Origin: a phage | Strand: one strand, 5' to 3' | Assembly (NCBI GenBank): GCA_016693855.1 | Contig: GCA_016693855.1_4844.1 | Length of the DNA stretch: 45,498 nt | Shown here: piece after piece, positions 739-31,448 of the stretch | How the letters are laid out: each line of letters opens with the position of its first letter | Numbering within the stretch: the stretch's first letter is position 1 | Translations under genes and position numbers: made by a program | The notes under the pieces: generated by a model | The model's input: the letters and a program-made list of their open reading frames with translations, nothing else | Told to the model about the DNA's origin: nothing | Databases searched by the model: none

Positions 739-1136
739 TGCCAGCGAAATTAAGAGGCATTCGCCAAGCCGTAGAAAGAACATCGCAGATTGTGGATGAG
801 ATAATTGCCACGAAAGCTGTGCGCGCTCTGAAGTCAGCAACATACATCATCCGCACCGAATCAGCCACGTTGACGCCGATTGATACGTCGACACTGATTA
901 ACAGCCAGTTTGATACTGTGGAAGTTAGCGGAACTCGAATCACTGGCAAGGTTGGCTACTCTGCGAAATATGCGCTGTACGTCCACAATGCCAGTGGCAA
1001 ACTTGCAGGTAAGCCGCGAAGCAATGGTAACGGCACGTATTGGAGTCCGGGTGGTGAACCGCAATTTCTTACCAAAGCGGCACAGCGCACAAAAGACCTT
1101 GTTGATAGCGTGATTAAGAAGGAGATGAAACTGTGA
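738..1136 (+). CDS. neck / tail completion-like protein (hypothetical)
   Basis: 132 aa ORF; start overlaps the stop of the previous gene; synteny with head-tail joining module. Confidence 0.3.
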   Translation: MPAKLRGIRQAVERTSQIVDEIIATKAVRALKSATYIIRTESATLTPIDTSTLINSQFDTVEVSGTRITGKVGYSAKYALYVHNASGKLAGKPRSNGNGTYWSPGGEPQFLTKAAQRTKDLVDSVIKKEMKL

Positions 1137-2022: not shown

Positions 2023-2739
2023 ATGGCTATTTGTGCAAATGATAAAGGCGTGCTTGTTGGTCGCATGACCCGCCTGTTCCTTGCTGAAGGCTGCGGCGAC
2101 GCAGTTCCGTCAGCAGAAGATTGGAAATATTTAGGCTCAACCACCAGTAAAGGTGTGGACTACTCGCCGCAGACTACTACGTCGGAAGCTGATACCACTG
2201 GCGGTTTTGTTTCCACTCTCGTTACCAGCTCTGATATGACCATCAGTGCAGAAGTGGAAATCCGCAAAAATGACCCGAGTGATGAGTTTGGATTCCATCG
2301 GCTTGTTGAGATTTACGCCACTGAACTGAAAGCTCGTCGCCAGCCTTCCTTGTGGGTGCGTCAGGTGACTGGTGCAACCATCGTTACCGCGTACTGCAAC
2401 ATAACCAGCATCAGTTACGAAGGTGGTACGAACGACATCGTTACTGGCAGCCTTGAGTTCAAGGTTTACGATTCTGATAGCGTTACCGTCGAAAGCCTTG
2501 AGCCACTGACGTTCACCACCGACCTGCAATCGACTGGCAGCACTGGTACGCCATTAACAGTTGTTGTTGAGGGCGGCGTCTCTCCTTACACTTACGTGTG
2601 GCGCAAAGATGGAGTAGTTGTTGGTAGTGAATCAGGCCCATCTCTGGCAAGCCCTACCGCTGGCGTGTATACCGTTACGGTGACAGACTCATCTACTGAC
2701 AAGGAAATTATTATCAGCACGGCTTGCACCGTGTCCTGA
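2023..2739 (+). CDS. major tail protein with C-terminal Ig-like domain
   Basis: 238 aa; position between head-tail joining genes and the chaperone/tape-measure pair; C-terminal ~80 aa (…PYTYVWRKDGVVVG…GVYTVTVTD) has the pattern of phage Ig-like (Big-type) domains commonly appended to siphovirus major tail proteins. Confidence 0.65.
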   Translation: MAICANDKGVLVGRMTRLFLAEGCGDAVPSAEDWKYLGSTTSKGVDYSPQTTTSEADTTGGFVSTLVTSSDMTISAEVEIRKNDPSDEFGFHRLVEIYATELKARRQPSLWVRQVTGATIVTAYCNITSISYEGGTNDIVTGSLEFKVYDSDSVTVESLEPLTFTTDLQSTGSTGTPLTVVVEGGVSPYTYVWRKDGVVVGSESGPSLASPTAGVYTVTVTDSSTDKEIIISTACTVS

Positions 2740-15850: not shown

Positions 15851-17771
15851 TTTGTTCTCCTGTAAAATCTTTTCTGTGGATTATGTCACGGCCTTTATCG
15901 TTGATACGATGCGTGATGCGTTTTGGCGCCTTAATCAATCCCGCATACATCATGAATTGCTTGGCGTTCTGGCATTTCAGGATTTTCCCGGCCATTGACT
16001 TATCATCAAGGTGAGGAAAGATAGCCTTCGCCTTAAACATGTTTTTCATGTGAGTTGCGCCGCCATAAGGGTAGAAAACCTCATTAGCCCATCCTTCTTT
16101 GCCATCACAACGATTAATCCAGTATCGATACAAAACCCCTTCCCCGTCCTTCGTTAACTGAACCTTGAAATCCATAACATCAGCCCACTCATTATCGGTA
16201 TACGCACGCTCATTAAGCGCCGCATTAGGGTCACGCAAAACATGATCGCAATGTCGGCAATAACGCGCAGTAGGGTCGTTTTTAGTACCACATCCATCAT
16301 CAAAAATACGTATTCCATGCTTATCGAAACCGCAACGGATGTAACTGAAAAACTCCTCGCAGCGACCATCTGGAGATACCGGGTCTTTCCCTATGCATCG
16401 ACGCGCATATGGGCTGTTCATTGTTCCACATTTTGGACACGGAACCTGTTCGCCACTGCGTTTTGAACGTTGCGCTTCAGCCTCTTCCAGAATTGGGTCT
16501 TCATACAGCTGACCAAGCTCAAACATCGTGCCTGAGAAATCCAGAACAAGATGGTCTTCTTTATGATACCCTGCATCAATTTGCTCTTTCTTCAGCAGGC
16601 GCATCCCGCGACCAAGCAACTGAACAAGAAGGGTGAGCGACATTATTTTTCTTAATATCACGCTTGTATCCCAAAGCGGGATGTTGACTCCTGTCGTAAG
16701 CGCGGCTATCTGGAATGTGTATTTTATTTTTCCAGTGTATGCATCCTTTAGTGCCTTACGTCTTGCTTTTTTCCCCATATCTTCAGTGACAATGGCGTAG
16801 CTTCCTTCTGGCAGATATTTAGCAGCTTCTAAACAATGCTTCTTGCCTGCACAGGTAATTAACACTCCATTTCTATCTTTTGTAAGCTCCATCACTTTAA
16901 GCATGATTTTCTGTGTGAGAGTGCCTTGTTCAAGTATTTCTTCCTGCATCTGCTTAAGTTGTTCAGCAGTGAAATCCTGCGTTCCGTCAACATCAGAGCC
17001 ATGAAATGATGAAAGGTCGTATTGCAAATCATCAACATCATGAAGTCCAAAGATTGTTGGAACAACAAATCCGCGATCTACCATGTACTTTGTGTCAATG
17101 TTTATTATTTCATTCTTCCAATACGCACCTTTCATTGACTCGGTGCCACGGAAAGGGCTTCCAGTGAATCCGATAGTTATCATGTCATGTCCATACTTTG
17201 CCTTACAGCGCCGATTTAACTCGGTCAGTATAACGCCATACTGTGTTGTTGGTTCACCACCGACAATGTCCTGCCACGGTACTTGGTGCCCTTCATCGCA
17301 AAGGCAAAATCTTGGGGTGAAATCACTCAACCCACCTTTCTTAACGTCACCATTTGATTCATCTTTTTTATCAAAAAGTGCGTTCACGATTGTTCCTTCA
17401 GTGCCGCATATAATAGGATATGCTGTGCTTTTCCTGCCAAGAGATGCACTATAAAGAGAGTTTTTTACACCGCACTCCCACATCATTTCAGCATTCTGCT
17501 CGGCTATTTCCCCCTGCCTTGAAATTACAAGACCATCCCACCACATATCCTGAAATCTACTGCAAAGCATTGAAATCATCACCGTCTTCCCTGATGAAAC
17601 CGACGCTGTAACATAGCTTGGTTCAGGTTTCTTGCCAAAATTACGAATAACCTCAGCGCACTTTGCGTAAACAAGCCATTGGTAATCATATGGCTCTATG
17701 GAGCCTAGTTTTATTGATTTCTTTAATTTATCTATATCAATCTCTGAAATCATCTTGTCTATTTTATGCAT
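15837..17771 (-). CDS. SF2 DNA helicase with C-terminal zinc-ribbon region
   Basis: 644 aa; Walker A-like …ASVSSGKTV…, DExH-like …LCDEGHQ…, and C-terminal Cys clusters CPKCG…C and CRHCDH. Confidence 0.8.
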   Translation of the reverse strand: MHKIDKMISEIDIDKLKKSIKLGSIEPYDYQWLVYAKCAEVIRNFGKKPEPSYVTASVSSGKTVMISMLCSRFQDMWWDGLVISRQGEIAEQNAEMMWECGVKNSLYSASLGRKSTAYPIICGTEGTIVNALFDKKDESNGDVKKGGLSDFTPRFCLCDEGHQVPWQDIVGGEPTTQYGVILTELNRRCKAKYGHDMITIGFTGSPFRGTESMKGAYWKNEIINIDTKYMVDRGFVVPTIFGLHDVDDLQYDLSSFHGSDVDGTQDFTAEQLKQMQEEILEQGTLTQKIMLKVMELTKDRNGVLITCAGKKHCLEAAKYLPEGSYAIVTEDMGKKARRKALKDAYTGKIKYTFQIAALTTGVNIPLWDTSVILRKIMSLTLLVQLLGRGMRLLKKEQIDAGYHKEDHLVLDFSGTMFELGQLYEDPILEEAEAQRSKRSGEQVPCPKCGTMNSPYARRCIGKDPVSPDGRCEEFFSYIRCGFDKHGIRIFDDGCGTKNDPTARYCRHCDHVLRDPNAALNERAYTDNEWADVMDFKVQLTKDGEGVLYRYWINRCDGKEGWANEVFYPYGGATHMKNMFKAKAIFPHLDDKSMAGKILKCQNAKQFMMYAGLIKAPKRITHRINDKGRDIIHRKDFTGEQSEAA

Positions 17772-18292
17772 TATTTTACCCTACCAAATTCACCATGATA
17801 CTTTTTTGATGCTTCTGCATAAACCTTTGCTGCTTCTTCTTTTGTATCATATCTTCCTAGCCATATTTTTTTATTATTTACATGTATAGAGCAAGTCCAT
17901 TTTTTTGTTTGCTTGCAAAAACCAACACCCTTTACACCAGAGGTGTTATGGCTTGGAATCCTCATGTTTCTTAAGTTTCCATTAAAGTTTGTTTCTCTTA
18001 GGTTTTCTATCCTGTTATTCAATCTATTTCCATCTTTATGGTCTATTATTAACTCAGGCCAATAACCATGCACTAAAGCCCATATTATTCTGTGAACCTT
18101 TATATCAACACCTAAAAAACCAACCTGAAGATATCCACTTACAGTCTTCGAACCTGCAATAGCGCCACGTTTAACCCTGTTTGTTGTTGTTCTTTTCCAT
18201 ATGAGATTTATTCCGTCATATGAAAAATACTCCCGCAACGTAGATACTGGTATTGACTTCTCTTTTAACTTCATTAATTCGAAATCATTCAC
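17771..18292 (-). CDS. HNH homing endonuclease with AP2-like DNA-binding domain
   Basis: …HRIIWALVHGYWPELIIDHKDGNRLNNRIENLRE… HNH motif followed by …SGVKGVGFCKQTKKWTCSI…LGRYDTKEEAAKVY… AP2-type domain; free-standing, immediately upstream of the helicase. Confidence 0.85.
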   Translation of the reverse strand: MNDFELMKLKEKSIPVSTLREYFSYDGINLIWKRTTTNRVKRGAIAGSKTVSGYLQVGFLGVDIKVHRIIWALVHGYWPELIIDHKDGNRLNNRIENLRETNFNGNLRNMRIPSHNTSGVKGVGFCKQTKKWTCSIHVNNKKIWLGRYDTKEEAAKVYAEASKKYHGEFGRVK

Positions 18293-24593: not shown

Positions 24594-25082
24594 ATGACGA
24601 AAGAAAGAGATTGGAATGAGGTCTTTGAATATATAGATGGGCGCTTAATTTGGAAGATCAAACCTTGCAATAACGTAAAAGAATACTCACCAGCTGGGTC
24701 AACGCGAAACGATGGCTACCTGCATGTTGGTTTTATGAAAAAACTACATATGGTTCATAGAATTATATGGGAAATGCATAACGGAAAAATACCAGATGGG
24801 ATGGAGATTGACCATGTAAACCATAACAAAATGGACAACAGAATTGAGAATTTGCGGCTTGTTCGGCACGGAAGCAACCAAAGGAATAAATCTAAACAGG
24901 GGAATAACACTAGTGGTGTGACTGGTGTAACATGGAGCAGAAGGGATAAAAAGTGGATTGCGCAGATAATGGTTGAAAGAAAAAACATCCATCTTGGATA
25001 CTTCAGTGACTTCAACTCCGCAGTGGCGGCAAGGAAAAATGCGGAAAAAGAGCATCGCTTTCACAAGAACCATGGTATATAA
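24594..25082 (+). CDS. HNH homing endonuclease with AP2-like domain
   Basis: …HRIIWEMHNGKIPDGMEIDHVNHNKMDNRIENLRLV… HNH motif; …SGVTGVTWSRRDKKWIAQI…LGYFSDFNSAVAARKNAE… AP2-type domain; close paralog of the ORF at 28588-29064. Confidence 0.85.
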   Translation: MTKERDWNEVFEYIDGRLIWKIKPCNNVKEYSPAGSTRNDGYLHVGFMKKLHMVHRIIWEMHNGKIPDGMEIDHVNHNKMDNRIENLRLVRHGSNQRNKSKQGNNTSGVTGVTWSRRDKKWIAQIMVERKNIHLGYFSDFNSAVAARKNAEKEHRFHKNHGI

Positions 25083-25781: not shown

Positions 25782-27206
25782 ATGGCTCGTAAACGCCTCT
25801 CCGCGCTGGCAATTGAAAAGCTGGAGGCGCAGATTGATGATGCAATGACAGATGTTGCAGAGTCCGCTATCTTTGGCATCTGCGACATGCAGAAGAACGT
25901 CATCAAGCGGCTAAGGATGACCGCTACTGGCGTTGATGACGTGACTAATGCAACCACCCATGCCGACCACCTTATTCCGGCAAAACTGGAGCGACTTCTT
26001 TATCCGAAGCGTTTCAAGTTTGTCTACGGTGGTCGTGGGTCAGGCAAGACGAGAACGATTATCACTATCCTTACAGAGCGAGCAAGGTTTCGCCCTGACC
26101 GCTTTGCCTGTTTTCGTGAGATTCAGCAATCCATTGAAGACTCAAGCTACCAGGAATTGTGCGACGAAATAGCGCGCAAGGGCGAATCGGCAGAGTTTCG
26201 CGTTATCAACAACGAGATAACGCACAAGAAGACCAAAGCTAAATTCCGCTTCAAAGGGCTGTATCGCAACCAGACTACAGTTAAGGGTTTCGCTGGAATT
26301 ACCGTTGGCTGGGTAGAGGAGGCAGAGAACGTCAGCCAGACAAGCTGGGATATTCTTGTGCCTACCATCCGTGCTGCCAATTCCGAGCTGTGGTGCTCAT
26401 TCAACCCCAACAAGGAAACAGACCCGACGTGGAAAAACTGGATTGCTCCATATCACTCGCAGATGGTCGATGGAATATTCGAAAATGATGAAATTCTGAT
26501 TGTCGAATGTAACTATTCAGACAACCCGTGGTTCTGGGATACGCCGTTGCCATCCGCTATGGAGCAAATGAAGCGAACTGATTACGACCGTTATCGCTGG
26601 ATTTGGATGGGAGCCTTTAATAAGCGTAGCGATGAGCAGGTCTTCGGCGGCAAATGGCGCATTGATAACTTCGAGGTCAAACCTGAATGGCATGGCCCAT
26701 ACTTCGGGATGGACTTCGGGTTTTCCACCGATCCAACCGCAATGGTTGAGGTTTATATCGAAGAATTACCAGGTGGGCGGCGCAATATTTATATTAATCG
26801 CGAGTACGGCAAGGTTGGGCTTGAGATTACCGATACGCCAGCCGCGATGGAGCAATCATTCCCAATGGCTAAGCGCGCGCGATGGTATGCGGACTGCGCG
26901 CGACCAGAAACCATCAGCCACATCAAGCGCTCGGGGTTTGACATTCATCCATGCACAAAATGGCCCGGAAGCGTAGAGGACGGCGTAACGTGGCTTCGTG
27001 GTTGCGACAGCATCATTATTCACGAACGATGCAAGGAGATGCAGAATGAGGCGGCAATGTACAGCTACAAAGTCGATAAGCTGACAGGGAATGTGCTGAC
27101 TGATATTGTCGATGCGTACAACCACTACTGGGATGCGGTTCGCTACGCACTAAATGACCACATCGTTCAGCGCGGTATCGGAATGCTAATCCGGCGCAGG
27201 CGATAA
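25782..27206 (+). CDS. terminase large subunit
   Basis: 474 aa; Walker A …KFVYGGRGSGKTRT…, followed by ATPase and C-terminal nuclease-sized region; typical size and motif order for phage TerL. Confidence 0.9.
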   Translation: MARKRLSALAIEKLEAQIDDAMTDVAESAIFGICDMQKNVIKRLRMTATGVDDVTNATTHADHLIPAKLERLLYPKRFKFVYGGRGSGKTRTIITILTERARFRPDRFACFREIQQSIEDSSYQELCDEIARKGESAEFRVINNEITHKKTKAKFRFKGLYRNQTTVKGFAGITVGWVEEAENVSQTSWDILVPTIRAANSELWCSFNPNKETDPTWKNWIAPYHSQMVDGIFENDEILIVECNYSDNPWFWDTPLPSAMEQMKRTDYDRYRWIWMGAFNKRSDEQVFGGKWRIDNFEVKPEWHGPYFGMDFGFSTDPTAMVEVYIEELPGGRRNIYINREYGKVGLEITDTPAAMEQSFPMAKRARWYADCARPETISHIKRSGFDIHPCTKWPGSVEDGVTWLRGCDSIIIHERCKEMQNEAAMYSYKVDKLTGNVLTDIVDAYNHYWDAVRYALNDHIVQRGIGMLIRRRR

Positions 27207-28275: not shown

Positions 28276-28466
28276 TGACAAGAAAGGAGGTCCACGAATA
28301 TGCTATTGCAGCCAGGAAGCGCGTCGAAGATGTGTGGAAGAATCATGGATTGCGCAGCAATAGAGCTAAATTGGTGGCACGATGCCATCAAGTCGTAAGT
28401 GGTGACAGGATTGAGTGTTACGCGTTTAATCAGTGGATGAAGTCTGGCGTTGTGAATAAGGAATAA
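28272..28466 (+). CDS. hypothetical protein
   Basis: 64 aa ORF, ATGA overlap with previous. Confidence 0.35.
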   Translation: MMTRKEVHEYAIAARKRVEDVWKNHGLRSNRAKLVARCHQVVSGDRIECYAFNQWMKSGVVNKE

Positions 28467-28587
28467 TGGTGAAGAATTGAAGTAAATCCGCTAAAATAAA
28501 CATTGCGGATAGGAAGGCCATCCGACAAGTGCGTTAGTCAGCGCATTTCCGCAATCCCACACTGACTCCTGATGACGAGGGTAAATC

Positions 28588-29064
28588 ATGAACTGGAATG
28601 AACATTTCTCAATAAAATAAGATGGGTTGCACTGGAAGCGAGTTAAAACAAACAGGCAAAAGACGACAAAAGCTGGTTATGTAAGCAATAAAGATGGATA
28701 CGTAAGAGTTATGCTTGATAGTAAATGCTATCTTGCTCACCGTATCATCTGGGAAATGCATAACGGCCCAATACCAGATGGTGTGCAGATCGACCATATC
28801 AACCATATCCGCCATGACAACAGAATTGAAAACCTTAGATTGGTAAGTAATCAGGATAACCAGAAGAACACAAAGAGGAGCAGAAATAACAAATCTGGTG
28901 TAACTGGTGTTTGCTGGTACCCAGCATATGAGAAGTGGAGAGCGTACATCTGCATAGATGGAAAGCAAATAACTCTTGGGTATTTTTCAAGTATCAAGTC
29001 AGTAGCAACAGCAAGAAAGGAAGCTGAGCTAAGATATGACTTTCACAAGAACCACGGCGCTTGA
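28588..29064 (+). pseudogene. HNH-AP2 homing endonuclease interrupted by in-frame TAA at codon 11 (pseudogene, or expressed from downstream TTG 28627)
   Basis: ATG 28588 with GAGGG RBS; reads MNWNEHFSIK-TAA(28618-28620)-DGLHWKRVK…, which aligns with the intact N-terminus of the 24594 paralog (…DWNEVFEYIDGRLIWKIK…); downstream HNH (…IDHINHIRHDNRIENLRLV…) and AP2 regions are intact. Confidence 0.6.
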
Positions 29065-29074
29065 TGATATAATG

Positions 29075-31448
<2,374 letters not shown>

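Follow-up and report, generated by a model that had tools for sequence, protein, structure and literature searches.

Why does the reading frame of an otherwise complete phage endonuclease carry a stop codon at its eleventh codon? The frame lies on the plus strand of a 45,498-nucleotide phage sequence (GenBank assembly GCA_016693855.1, contig GCA_016693855.1_4844.1), referred to here as the window. The window belongs to a siphophage of ~45 kb, which shares ~90% identity with the Skatevirus, Swiduovirus and Cedarrivervirus phages that infect Salmonella, E. coli and Shigella. The first-pass annotation of this DNA had offered three readings of the stop: that the endonuclease is freshly inactivated, that it is expressed at a low level by reinitiation at a downstream TTG, or that the stop is read through, and it had suggested that such an arrangement could tame a toxic nuclease.

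The interrupted frame and its orthologs

Direct reading of the sequence agrees with that annotation on the layout of the locus, an ATG at 28588 with a good ribosome-binding site, a TAA at codon 11 and an open frame beyond. It was also right to describe the gene as encoding an HNH-AP2 homing endonuclease whose frame is broken at codon 11 and whose N-terminus is homologous to that of a paralog at 24594. The Shine-Dalgarno (SD) sequence GAGGG (28577–28581) precedes the ATG at a spacing of 6, and its anti-SD duplex (−6.4 kcal/mol) has a strength in the top 6% of random positions of the window. After the TAA the frame continues as DGLHWKRVK... and stays open for 147 codons as far as a TGA at 29062–29064. 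The whole interval, 28588–29064 (+), is 477 nt long, the same length as the intact orthologous coding sequences of phages LPST49 and Seszw_1. The features of the frame, and the two related genes in the window, are as follows.

28588–28620, plus strand: residual ORF, ATG and 9 codons (MNWNEHFSIK) followed by TAA, read from the sequence
28618–28620, plus strand: nonsense codon TAA at codon 11, GAA (Glu11) in all orthologs, from the ortholog alignment and codon tables
28621–29064, plus strand: rest of the HNH-AP2 frame, predicted to be untranslated, codons 12–158 and TGA
about 28729–28863, plus strand: HNH_3 domain, from Pfam
about 28894–29034, plus strand: AP2-like domain, below the cutoff in Pfam, assigned from the structure model and Foldseek
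24594–25082, plus strand: intact HNH-AP2 paralog of 162 aa, ~52% identity, HNH_3 at 70.9 bits
17771–18292, minus strand: third, more distant HNH paralog, 36% identity over 146 aa, from tblastn against the window and the ORF list

Codon 11 is GAA (Glu) in LPST49, Seszw_1/seszw, the Klebsiella phage RSU-F4K5 and the IMG/VR contig L015. The comparison covers four or five independent orthologs, with Seszw_1 and LPST49 being Salmonella phages. The L015 ortholog, which surfaced through the leader-pattern search described below, reads ...SIKEDGLHW across this codon, and the same 158-codon frame is present in all orthologs found. TAA and GAA differ by one base, a G→T transversion at 28618, and in the alignment of the gene starts TAA is present in the window only. 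The comparison with related phages that had been proposed as a check therefore returned a sense codon and a conserved upstream peptide; it did not reveal a family that begins at the downstream start. Judged from these alignments, the window TAA is a lineage-specific GAA→TAA nonsense substitution. The exact TAA allele had no match in IMG/VR, the predicted 145-aa product was absent from an assembly index of 153 billion gene positions, and a degenerate-pattern search for more orthologs returned the Seszw_1 contig only.

The RSU-F4K5 copy has an in-frame stop of its own, GAG→TAG at codon 115, and is annotated there as two split ORFs. Independent nonsense alleles, located at different codons, are thus found in two of ~5 natural lineages. 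The window copy also carries the lineage-specific missense changes M66V, which falls within the conserved GM[EQ]IDH motif, A139V, at a position that is at least 90% conserved, and H150Y. On its terminal branch there are 4 non-synonymous changes (the stop included) and 4 synonymous ones, and a branch test for relaxed constraint found no statistical difference between this ratio and the ~4–5:5 of intact Seszw_1. These substitutions are suggestive of relaxed constraint, a hint that is not significant at such small numbers.

The frame was compared with its protein family to ascertain what the stop interrupts. There are 504 homologs (E ≤ 1e-10), almost all of them full-length at ~157–165 aa and some with a Pfam AP2 call. 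Pfam HNH_3 (PF13392, cutoff 24.8) scores 79.2 bits on the window frame from TTG 28627 and 81.8 bits on LPST49, while Pfam AP2 (PF00847) reaches 17–20 bits (lowest 17.2), under its cutoff of 33.3. The structural model used here is an AlphaFold model of an intact ortholog (P0001), which is 99% identical to LPST49, with a mean pLDDT of 85.7. Its C-terminal domain superposes on the plant AP2/ERF domains of TEM1 (7ET5/7ET4) and AtERF1 (1GCC) with rmsds of 1.2–1.8 Å for 45–51 residues (Foldseek probability 1.00) and has their fold, a three-stranded sheet and a helix. The HNH_3 match, the AP2/ERF superposition and the size of the homologs all resemble phage and bacterial HNH-AP2 endonucleases; the gene differs from these in its AP2 score, which lies under the Pfam gathering cutoff, and in that the window copy is a nonsense allele.

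The invariant columns were defined by two alignments, of 47 and of 99 homologs, with a catalytic/metal set consisting of H70, N82, N91/N94 and the DH..H motif. The family-invariant columns, among them H70, N82, L83, R84 and N94, are all kept in the window frame (QIDHINH...NRIENLRLVSNQDNQKN); downstream of the TAA this frame has lost none of its catalytic or invariant residues. The N-terminus is conserved as well. M1, F7 and W16 each reach at least 90% conservation among the 47 homologs, W16 also among the 99, and W3 and G13 are common in these alignments. Residues 1–10 are modelled with a pLDDT of ~90, and the strands formed by residues 7–10 and 13–16 make a β-hairpin that has codon 11 in its turn. 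The paralog at 24594–25082 resembles the interrupted copy in this region too, including the N-terminal DWNEVFEYIDGRLIWK segment. Because the N-terminal peptide is conserved family-wide, the TAA breaks a genuine N-terminus and is not an accident of the reading frame.

The best whole-chain PDB match of the model is the homing endonuclease I-HmuI (1U3E; Foldseek E 6.4e-4, probability 1.00, TM ~0.4, 171 columns), which is likewise small and phage-encoded. The two proteins share an N-terminal β-sheet region, an HNH ββα-metal motif and a C-terminal DNA-binding module, arranged in the same order. However, they are only 19% identical, and the C-terminus of I-HmuI is a helix-turn-helix whereas that of the modelled ortholog is AP2-like. 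I-HmuI is also intron-encoded, unlike the window gene, which is free-standing and interrupted by a stop.

A dispensable cassette upstream of the portal gene

Of the 239 phage records with a match, only ~28 contain a full-length ortholog. Matches to the flanks of the locus were found in 98 records; the gene is present in only 27–28 of them, nearly all of which are seszw and its laboratory derivatives. In the natural relatives Sf11 and swi2 the stretch corresponding to 28280–29167 has a different sequence and contains no HNH gene. RSU-F4K5 and the window have only 28492–29157 in common (89.5% identity). This interval holds the leader and the ORF, together with the hairpin behind them and ~56 nt from the 5´ end of the portal gene, which is the pattern expected of a mobile cassette that takes short co-converted flanks along. 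At the position of the cassette, and behind the same leader, the Klebsiella phages VLCpiS13f and 6991 have another HNH-AP2 gene, of 49% identity.

Deletion data are available for the ortholog. Records MZ375xxx and OL9647xx come from seszw mutants whose genomes were reduced with CRISPR, and the paper describing the method (CiPGr) classed genes missing from isolated mutants as non-essential (PMC9825161). Many of the seszw CiPGr mutants are without the gene, the deletion in seszw_60S is the exact equivalent of 28588–29064, and the isolates are viable. Hence, the HNH gene is dispensable for growth of seszw, a result that applies to the ortholog in a phage other than that of the window. With its patchy distribution, its presence in unrelated backbones and its precise deletability in seszw, the gene has the behaviour of a free-standing homing-endonuclease cassette, placed just upstream of the portal gene and with putative homing activity.

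Between the endonuclease and portal genes lies a compact junction.

29065–29073, plus strand: extended −10 box TGATATAAT, directly 3´ of the HNH stop codon
29074–29097, plus strand: strong hairpin, followed by a T-run to 29101 that ends at the portal ATG, from the terminator scan
29102–30517, plus strand: portal protein gene, the first ~56 nt of which travel with the cassette (RSU-F4K5 homology ends at 29157)

The hairpin and T-run fold at −16.3 kcal/mol (z = −5.2), with 0 of 200 shuffles as stable, and the portal SD sequence GAGGG (29091–29095) sits in the 3´ arm of the stem. The junction (29065–29101) is identical in LPST49, Seszw_1, RSU, VLCpiS13f and 6991. The HNH-less phages Sf11 and swi2 have an analogous arrangement of promoter, hairpin and T-run ahead of the portal gene, indicating that the junction is a feature of the phage beside which the cassette is inserted and not the endonuclease's own control.

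Fate of the TAA allele

The reading that best accounts for these data, to which we assign a probability of about three in four, is that the TAA allele is a real nonsense mutation and the gene a young pseudogene, formed by ordinary decay of a dispensable selfish gene. The cassette would consist of a promoter of its own, the structured leader, the ORF and the hairpin that follows, and one G→T transversion in this phage lineage would have turned Glu11 into TAA. Ribosomes starting at ATG 28588 would then stop after 10 residues, and the nuclease would not be made, or would be made in traces only. Thus, nuclease activity has presumably been lost from the window allele. The decay probably reflects an absence of selection; such a degeneration phase would be expected once a homing endonuclease runs out of empty target sites.

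The degeneration cycle of homing endonucleases is established in the literature (reviewed in PMC2988022), and the two independent nonsense alleles at different codons match this cycle of gain, degeneration and loss and are the opposite of what a conserved regulatory stop would give. The patchiness, the varied backbones and the dispensability also agree with the cycle as described from the yeast model and for phages (PMC2988022). The window differs from the described cases in presenting the earliest visible decay, one stop with no indels, and in that the homing activity and target site of this family member are putative. The locus adds a further example of a homing endonuclease gene at the very onset of decay, in a class of mobile gene that is already known. 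For annotation, the gene should be marked as a pseudogene rather than as a 145-aa protein with a TTG start. Together with the RSU-F4K5 allele it provides a small natural data set on the rate at which such cassettes die once fixed.

The alternative that survives best is a sequencing or assembly error, or a mutation restricted to the clone (arising, for example, in laboratory propagation), in which case the population would really be GAA and the enzyme intact. We regard this as improbable. The TAA allele is unique in public data and is represented by a single consensus sequence, and G→T is a typical oxidative-damage artefact. The frame past the stop is completely intact; as it is open over 147 codons with its key residues retained, the lesion must be either very recent or not real. 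However, the change is a substitution and does not alter the length of a homopolymer. Among the 51 genes shared with LPST49, the HNH gene alone contains an in-frame stop (other flagged genes are mosaic replacements with no breaks), and the freedom of the remaining 50 from stops and frameshifts indicates a clean assembly. The same copy moreover carries the three further missense changes described above, some of them at conserved positions, and the independent nonsense allele of RSU-F4K5 shows that this gene does suffer knock-outs of the kind.

Termination at the TAA followed by reinitiation at TTG 28627, a reading that likewise presupposes a real mutation, is less probable again. The product would be a protein without residues 1–13 that provides low and less toxic nuclease activity. 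The pairing geometry at this codon is non-functional: the best upstream anti-SD pairing is at spacing 0 (16th percentile of random positions), there is no correctly spaced SD, and TTG is a weak initiator. The codon is in frame (codon 14) and 6 nt past the stop, bacterial ribosomes are known to reinitiate over short distances without an SD, and the HNH_3 and AP2-like domains lie wholly downstream of it. The product would nonetheless be without W3, F7 and strand β1 of the confidently modelled, family-conserved hairpin. No ortholog or family member has a start at this position, nor is there a sign of selection for such a state. Reinitiation is thus unlikely and would yield at best a trace of the shortened product.

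Programmed readthrough or suppression, by which the stop would act as a regulatory device that allows low-level synthesis of the full-length enzyme, is very improbable. The open downstream frame is the sole point in its favour; the stop at codon 11 is conserved in no ortholog, and 42 of the 43 homologous leader–ORF cassettes described below are uninterrupted. There are no tRNA or tmRNA genes in the window, hence no phage suppressor tRNA. In enterobacteria UAA is the codon at which termination is most efficient, and to our knowledge no readthrough-stimulating element has been described for UAA-G in these bacteria. The RNA fold of 28467–28660, which was searched for structure that could promote readthrough or reinitiation, is like that of shuffles (z = 0.18). 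The minimum free energy fold also joined the leader to the sequence around TTG 28627 by a long-range pairing, which was dropped because it is not kept in Seszw_1. Among the three readings offered at the outset, then, fresh inactivation is the one upheld, by GAA in the orthologs, the conserved N-terminus, dispensability and the second nonsense lineage; readthrough falls with the unconserved stop and the lack of a tRNA in the window.

Least probable of all is that the gene encodes a packaging-associated HNH protein, similar to HK97 gp74, that is needed with the terminase and portal and so is still expressed somehow: the location between the large terminase (25782–27206) and portal (29102–30517) genes would suit such a role, but the viability of the precise seszw deletion mutants rules it out despite that position, the gene is missing at the locus in close relatives, its HNH_3-AP2 architecture and I-HmuI-like fold are of the homing/nicking endonuclease type, and two further paralogs are present elsewhere in the window genome.

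A probable int-alpA-type leader RNA ahead of the frame

The pseudogene interpretation leaves in place a conserved element upstream of the dead frame, whose parts are listed here.

28492–28497, plus strand: −10-like box TAAAAT, putative cassette promoter by sequence, 4 nt 5´ of the outer stem of the leader, predicted transcription start ~28503
28500–28557, plus strand: structured 5´ leader of the int-alpA type, 58 nt, from covariance model, covariation and identity
28502–28509 with 28548–28555, plus strand: helix P1 of the leader, by pairing
28507–28523, plus strand: near-invariant core of the leader, GGATAGGAAGGCCATCC
28529–28546, plus strand: P3 hairpin of the leader, with loop TTAGTCAG at 28534–28541
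28562–28567, plus strand: site 1, CTGACT, putative decoy pairing site, complementary to AGTCAG of the P3 loop
28573–28581, plus strand: site 2, TGAC and the adjoining SD GAGGG, with TGAC complementary to GTCA of the P3 loop

Not one nucleotide of the leader differs between the window, LPST49, Seszw_1 and RSU-F4K5 (100% identity), whereas the neighbouring coding sequence differs by 3–10%. In Pseudomonas phage PfAn1 an 80% identical leader lies ahead of an HNH gene whose protein is only 28% identical. The pattern of the leader core was found at 49 IMG/VR loci, from which 38 distinct copies were confirmed by a covariance model (R1). This model scores the window leader at 57.7 bits (E 2e-14) as the sole copy in the window, and it detected no leader at the two other HNH paralogs. 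The pairing is supported by covariation, which for P1 and P3 together is 0.463 compared to 0.174 ± 0.018 in shuffles (0 of 500 reach the observed value) and 0.06–0.14 for slid registers; up to six pair types are found per P1 position among the leader copies. A match of at least 5/6 to TATAAT lies 3–11 nt upstream of P1 in 24 of 43 leaders compared to ~6% of random positions. In 42 of the 43, an ORF on the same strand begins at a median distance of 80 nt from the core; the window is the exception, owing to its TAA. The ORFs that follow the leaders encode HNH_3+AP2, HNH/HNH_5, NUMOD3+HNH_2, GIY-YIG, T5orf172/MUG113 and Endonuclease VII proteins; a single one encodes a helicase.

A scan with the int-alpA model of Rfam (RF02996) gave no match to the window leader itself at E ≤ 1. 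Homologous leaders score 40.1 (L013), 34.7 (L021), 33.9 (L053) and 30.9 bits (L022) with the same model, for which the gathering score is 35.8. The cmscan alignments of the homologous copies give the order P1, UAG, P2 hairpin, CGAAAAG, P3 hairpin and P1´. On the strength of these alignments, the leader probably represents a divergent subfamily of the described int-alpA RNA motif. The Rfam entry is typed "Gene; sRNA", and the window subfamily has the same helix architecture. It differs in having a fixed P2 (GGA-CGGCCA-UCC) and in lying on the same strand as, and upstream of, nuclease ORFs, so that it looks cis-regulatory rather than like a trans-acting sRNA near int/alpA genes. The RF02996 matches argue against a brand-new RNA class. 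A hammerhead identity was rejected because the spacer CTGATGA is not conserved in RSU or L016, and a tRNA-like element because ARAGORN was negative and there is no T-arm. A literature search with the core sequence gave no relevant match.

The loop of P3 shows a relationship to the sequence that follows the leader. Complementarity between loop and spacer is longer for cognate than for non-cognate pairs (p ~ 1e-10), and between the loop and the SD region (−18 to −4) it averages 5.1 nt for cognate and 4.0 nt for non-cognate pairs (p = 5e-10); in the subfamily of the window leader, site 2 is only 4 nt long. By these signatures the leader resembles an element that controls the translation of selfish nuclease genes in cis. 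As a switch, it might work by pairing the P3 loop either with the decoy site or with the SD region, while the invariant P2 core might sense some factor. The leader is 100% identical even in both of the lineages with nonsense nuclease ORFs, and on ~40 phage contigs it stands at a fixed distance before HNH, GIY-YIG, T5orf172 and Endonuclease VII genes; selection may act on the leader rather than on the dead ORF. That the leader is under such selection, as a portable switch for the translation of selfish nuclease genes, is a possibility that we advance tentatively, at somewhat less than even odds.

The leader is arguably of more consequence than the stop, being near-invariant, common to many families of phage selfish nucleases and equipped with a loop that covaries with the ribosome-binding region. 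The function of the orphan int-alpA motif becomes directly testable by reporter fusions, and if the leader does act as a switch, int-alpA gains a cis-regulatory function and the "taming" of the nuclease is done by RNA and not by the stop codon. The suggestion that the stop itself tames a toxic nuclease is unsupported, given that a conserved leader is already placed to control translation and that, in all but one of the 43 homologous cassettes, the leader fronts an uninterrupted ORF.

A related arrangement is known from phage T4, where structures sequester the ribosome-binding sites of I-TevI, I-TevII, I-TevIII, segB and mobE. Like these, the window leader is promoter-proximal and structured and has a loop complementary to the SD region. 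Unlike the T4 structures, which are simple local hairpins, it has a three-helix int-alpA-type fold with a near-invariant core that is found ahead of many unrelated nuclease genes, and occlusion of the SD is proposed to occur through a loop–SD pseudoknot with an upstream decoy site.

A structured leader upstream of diverse nuclease genes

The HNH gene of the window is preceded by the following element:

28492-28587, near-invariant structured leader that has a -10 box of its own and resembles Rfam RF02996 (int-alpA type)

This leader is 100% identical across the four lineages (the window, LPST49, Seszw_1 and Klebsiella phage RSU-F4K5), while the adjacent HNH coding sequence diverges by 3-10%. 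In ~40 phage contigs it lies at a fixed distance, ~80 nt, upstream of nuclease genes, which are diverse and include HNH, GIY-YIG, T5orf172 and Endonuclease VII types. The P3 loop of the leader covaries both with the SD region and with the putative decoy site, which suggests that the leader is a pseudoknot translational switch. Some phage contigs carry two to three copies:

Contig L014: 2085-2146; 6444-6503
Contig L031: 858-916; 8233-8293; 10964-11023

Among these multiple copies, some lack the exact core and were detected by the covariance model only. Their presence on single contigs suggests that a phage genome can hold several leader-type nuclease cassettes. The metagenomic phage contig L021 has one nuclease-leader copy and two other RNA elements:

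436-501, nuclease-leader copy
902-938 (-), abiF RNA (RF03085; 47.4 bits, exceeding the gathering score of 37)
2324-2390 (-), second int-alpA-like element (35.1 bits), with a different P2 sequence

Disrupted and intact HNH genes

The orthologous HNH gene of RSU-F4K5 (PQ805437.1) contains an independent in-frame stop at codon 115 (locus L003, 1937-1939, GAG to TAG) and is annotated in that record as two ORFs, ORF_9 and ORF_10. A separate assembly also encodes a 114-aa protein of this kind (P0003). The laboratory mutant seszw_50L (MZ375303.1) is another viable disruption; a ~47-nt insertion or rearrangement within its HNH gene (locus L005, ~1789-2312) truncates the ORF after ~101 aa. The dead HNH gene of the window bears three lineage-specific missense changes:

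28783-28785, M66V, within the GM[EQ]IDH motif
29002-29004, A139V, altering an alanine that is at least 90% conserved
29035-29037, H150Y

These changes would fit a relaxation of constraint following the nonsense mutation but are too few for a test. Two further HNH paralogs in the window are intact:

24594-25082 (+), HNH paralog
17771-18292 (-), HNH paralog

Both lack an int-alpA-type leader, so this phage probably expresses its three nuclease genes differently.

The junction with the portal gene

Between the HNH and portal genes lies the following element:

29065-29101, extended -10 box (TGATATAAT), then a very stable hairpin and a T-run ending at the portal ATG

The portal SD is contained in the 3' arm of the hairpin. 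This region may be a terminator and a 5' stem in one, uncoupling portal translation from upstream read-through transcripts. An analogous promoter-hairpin-T-run arrangement is present in Sf11 and swi2, natural relatives that have no HNH gene at this locus.
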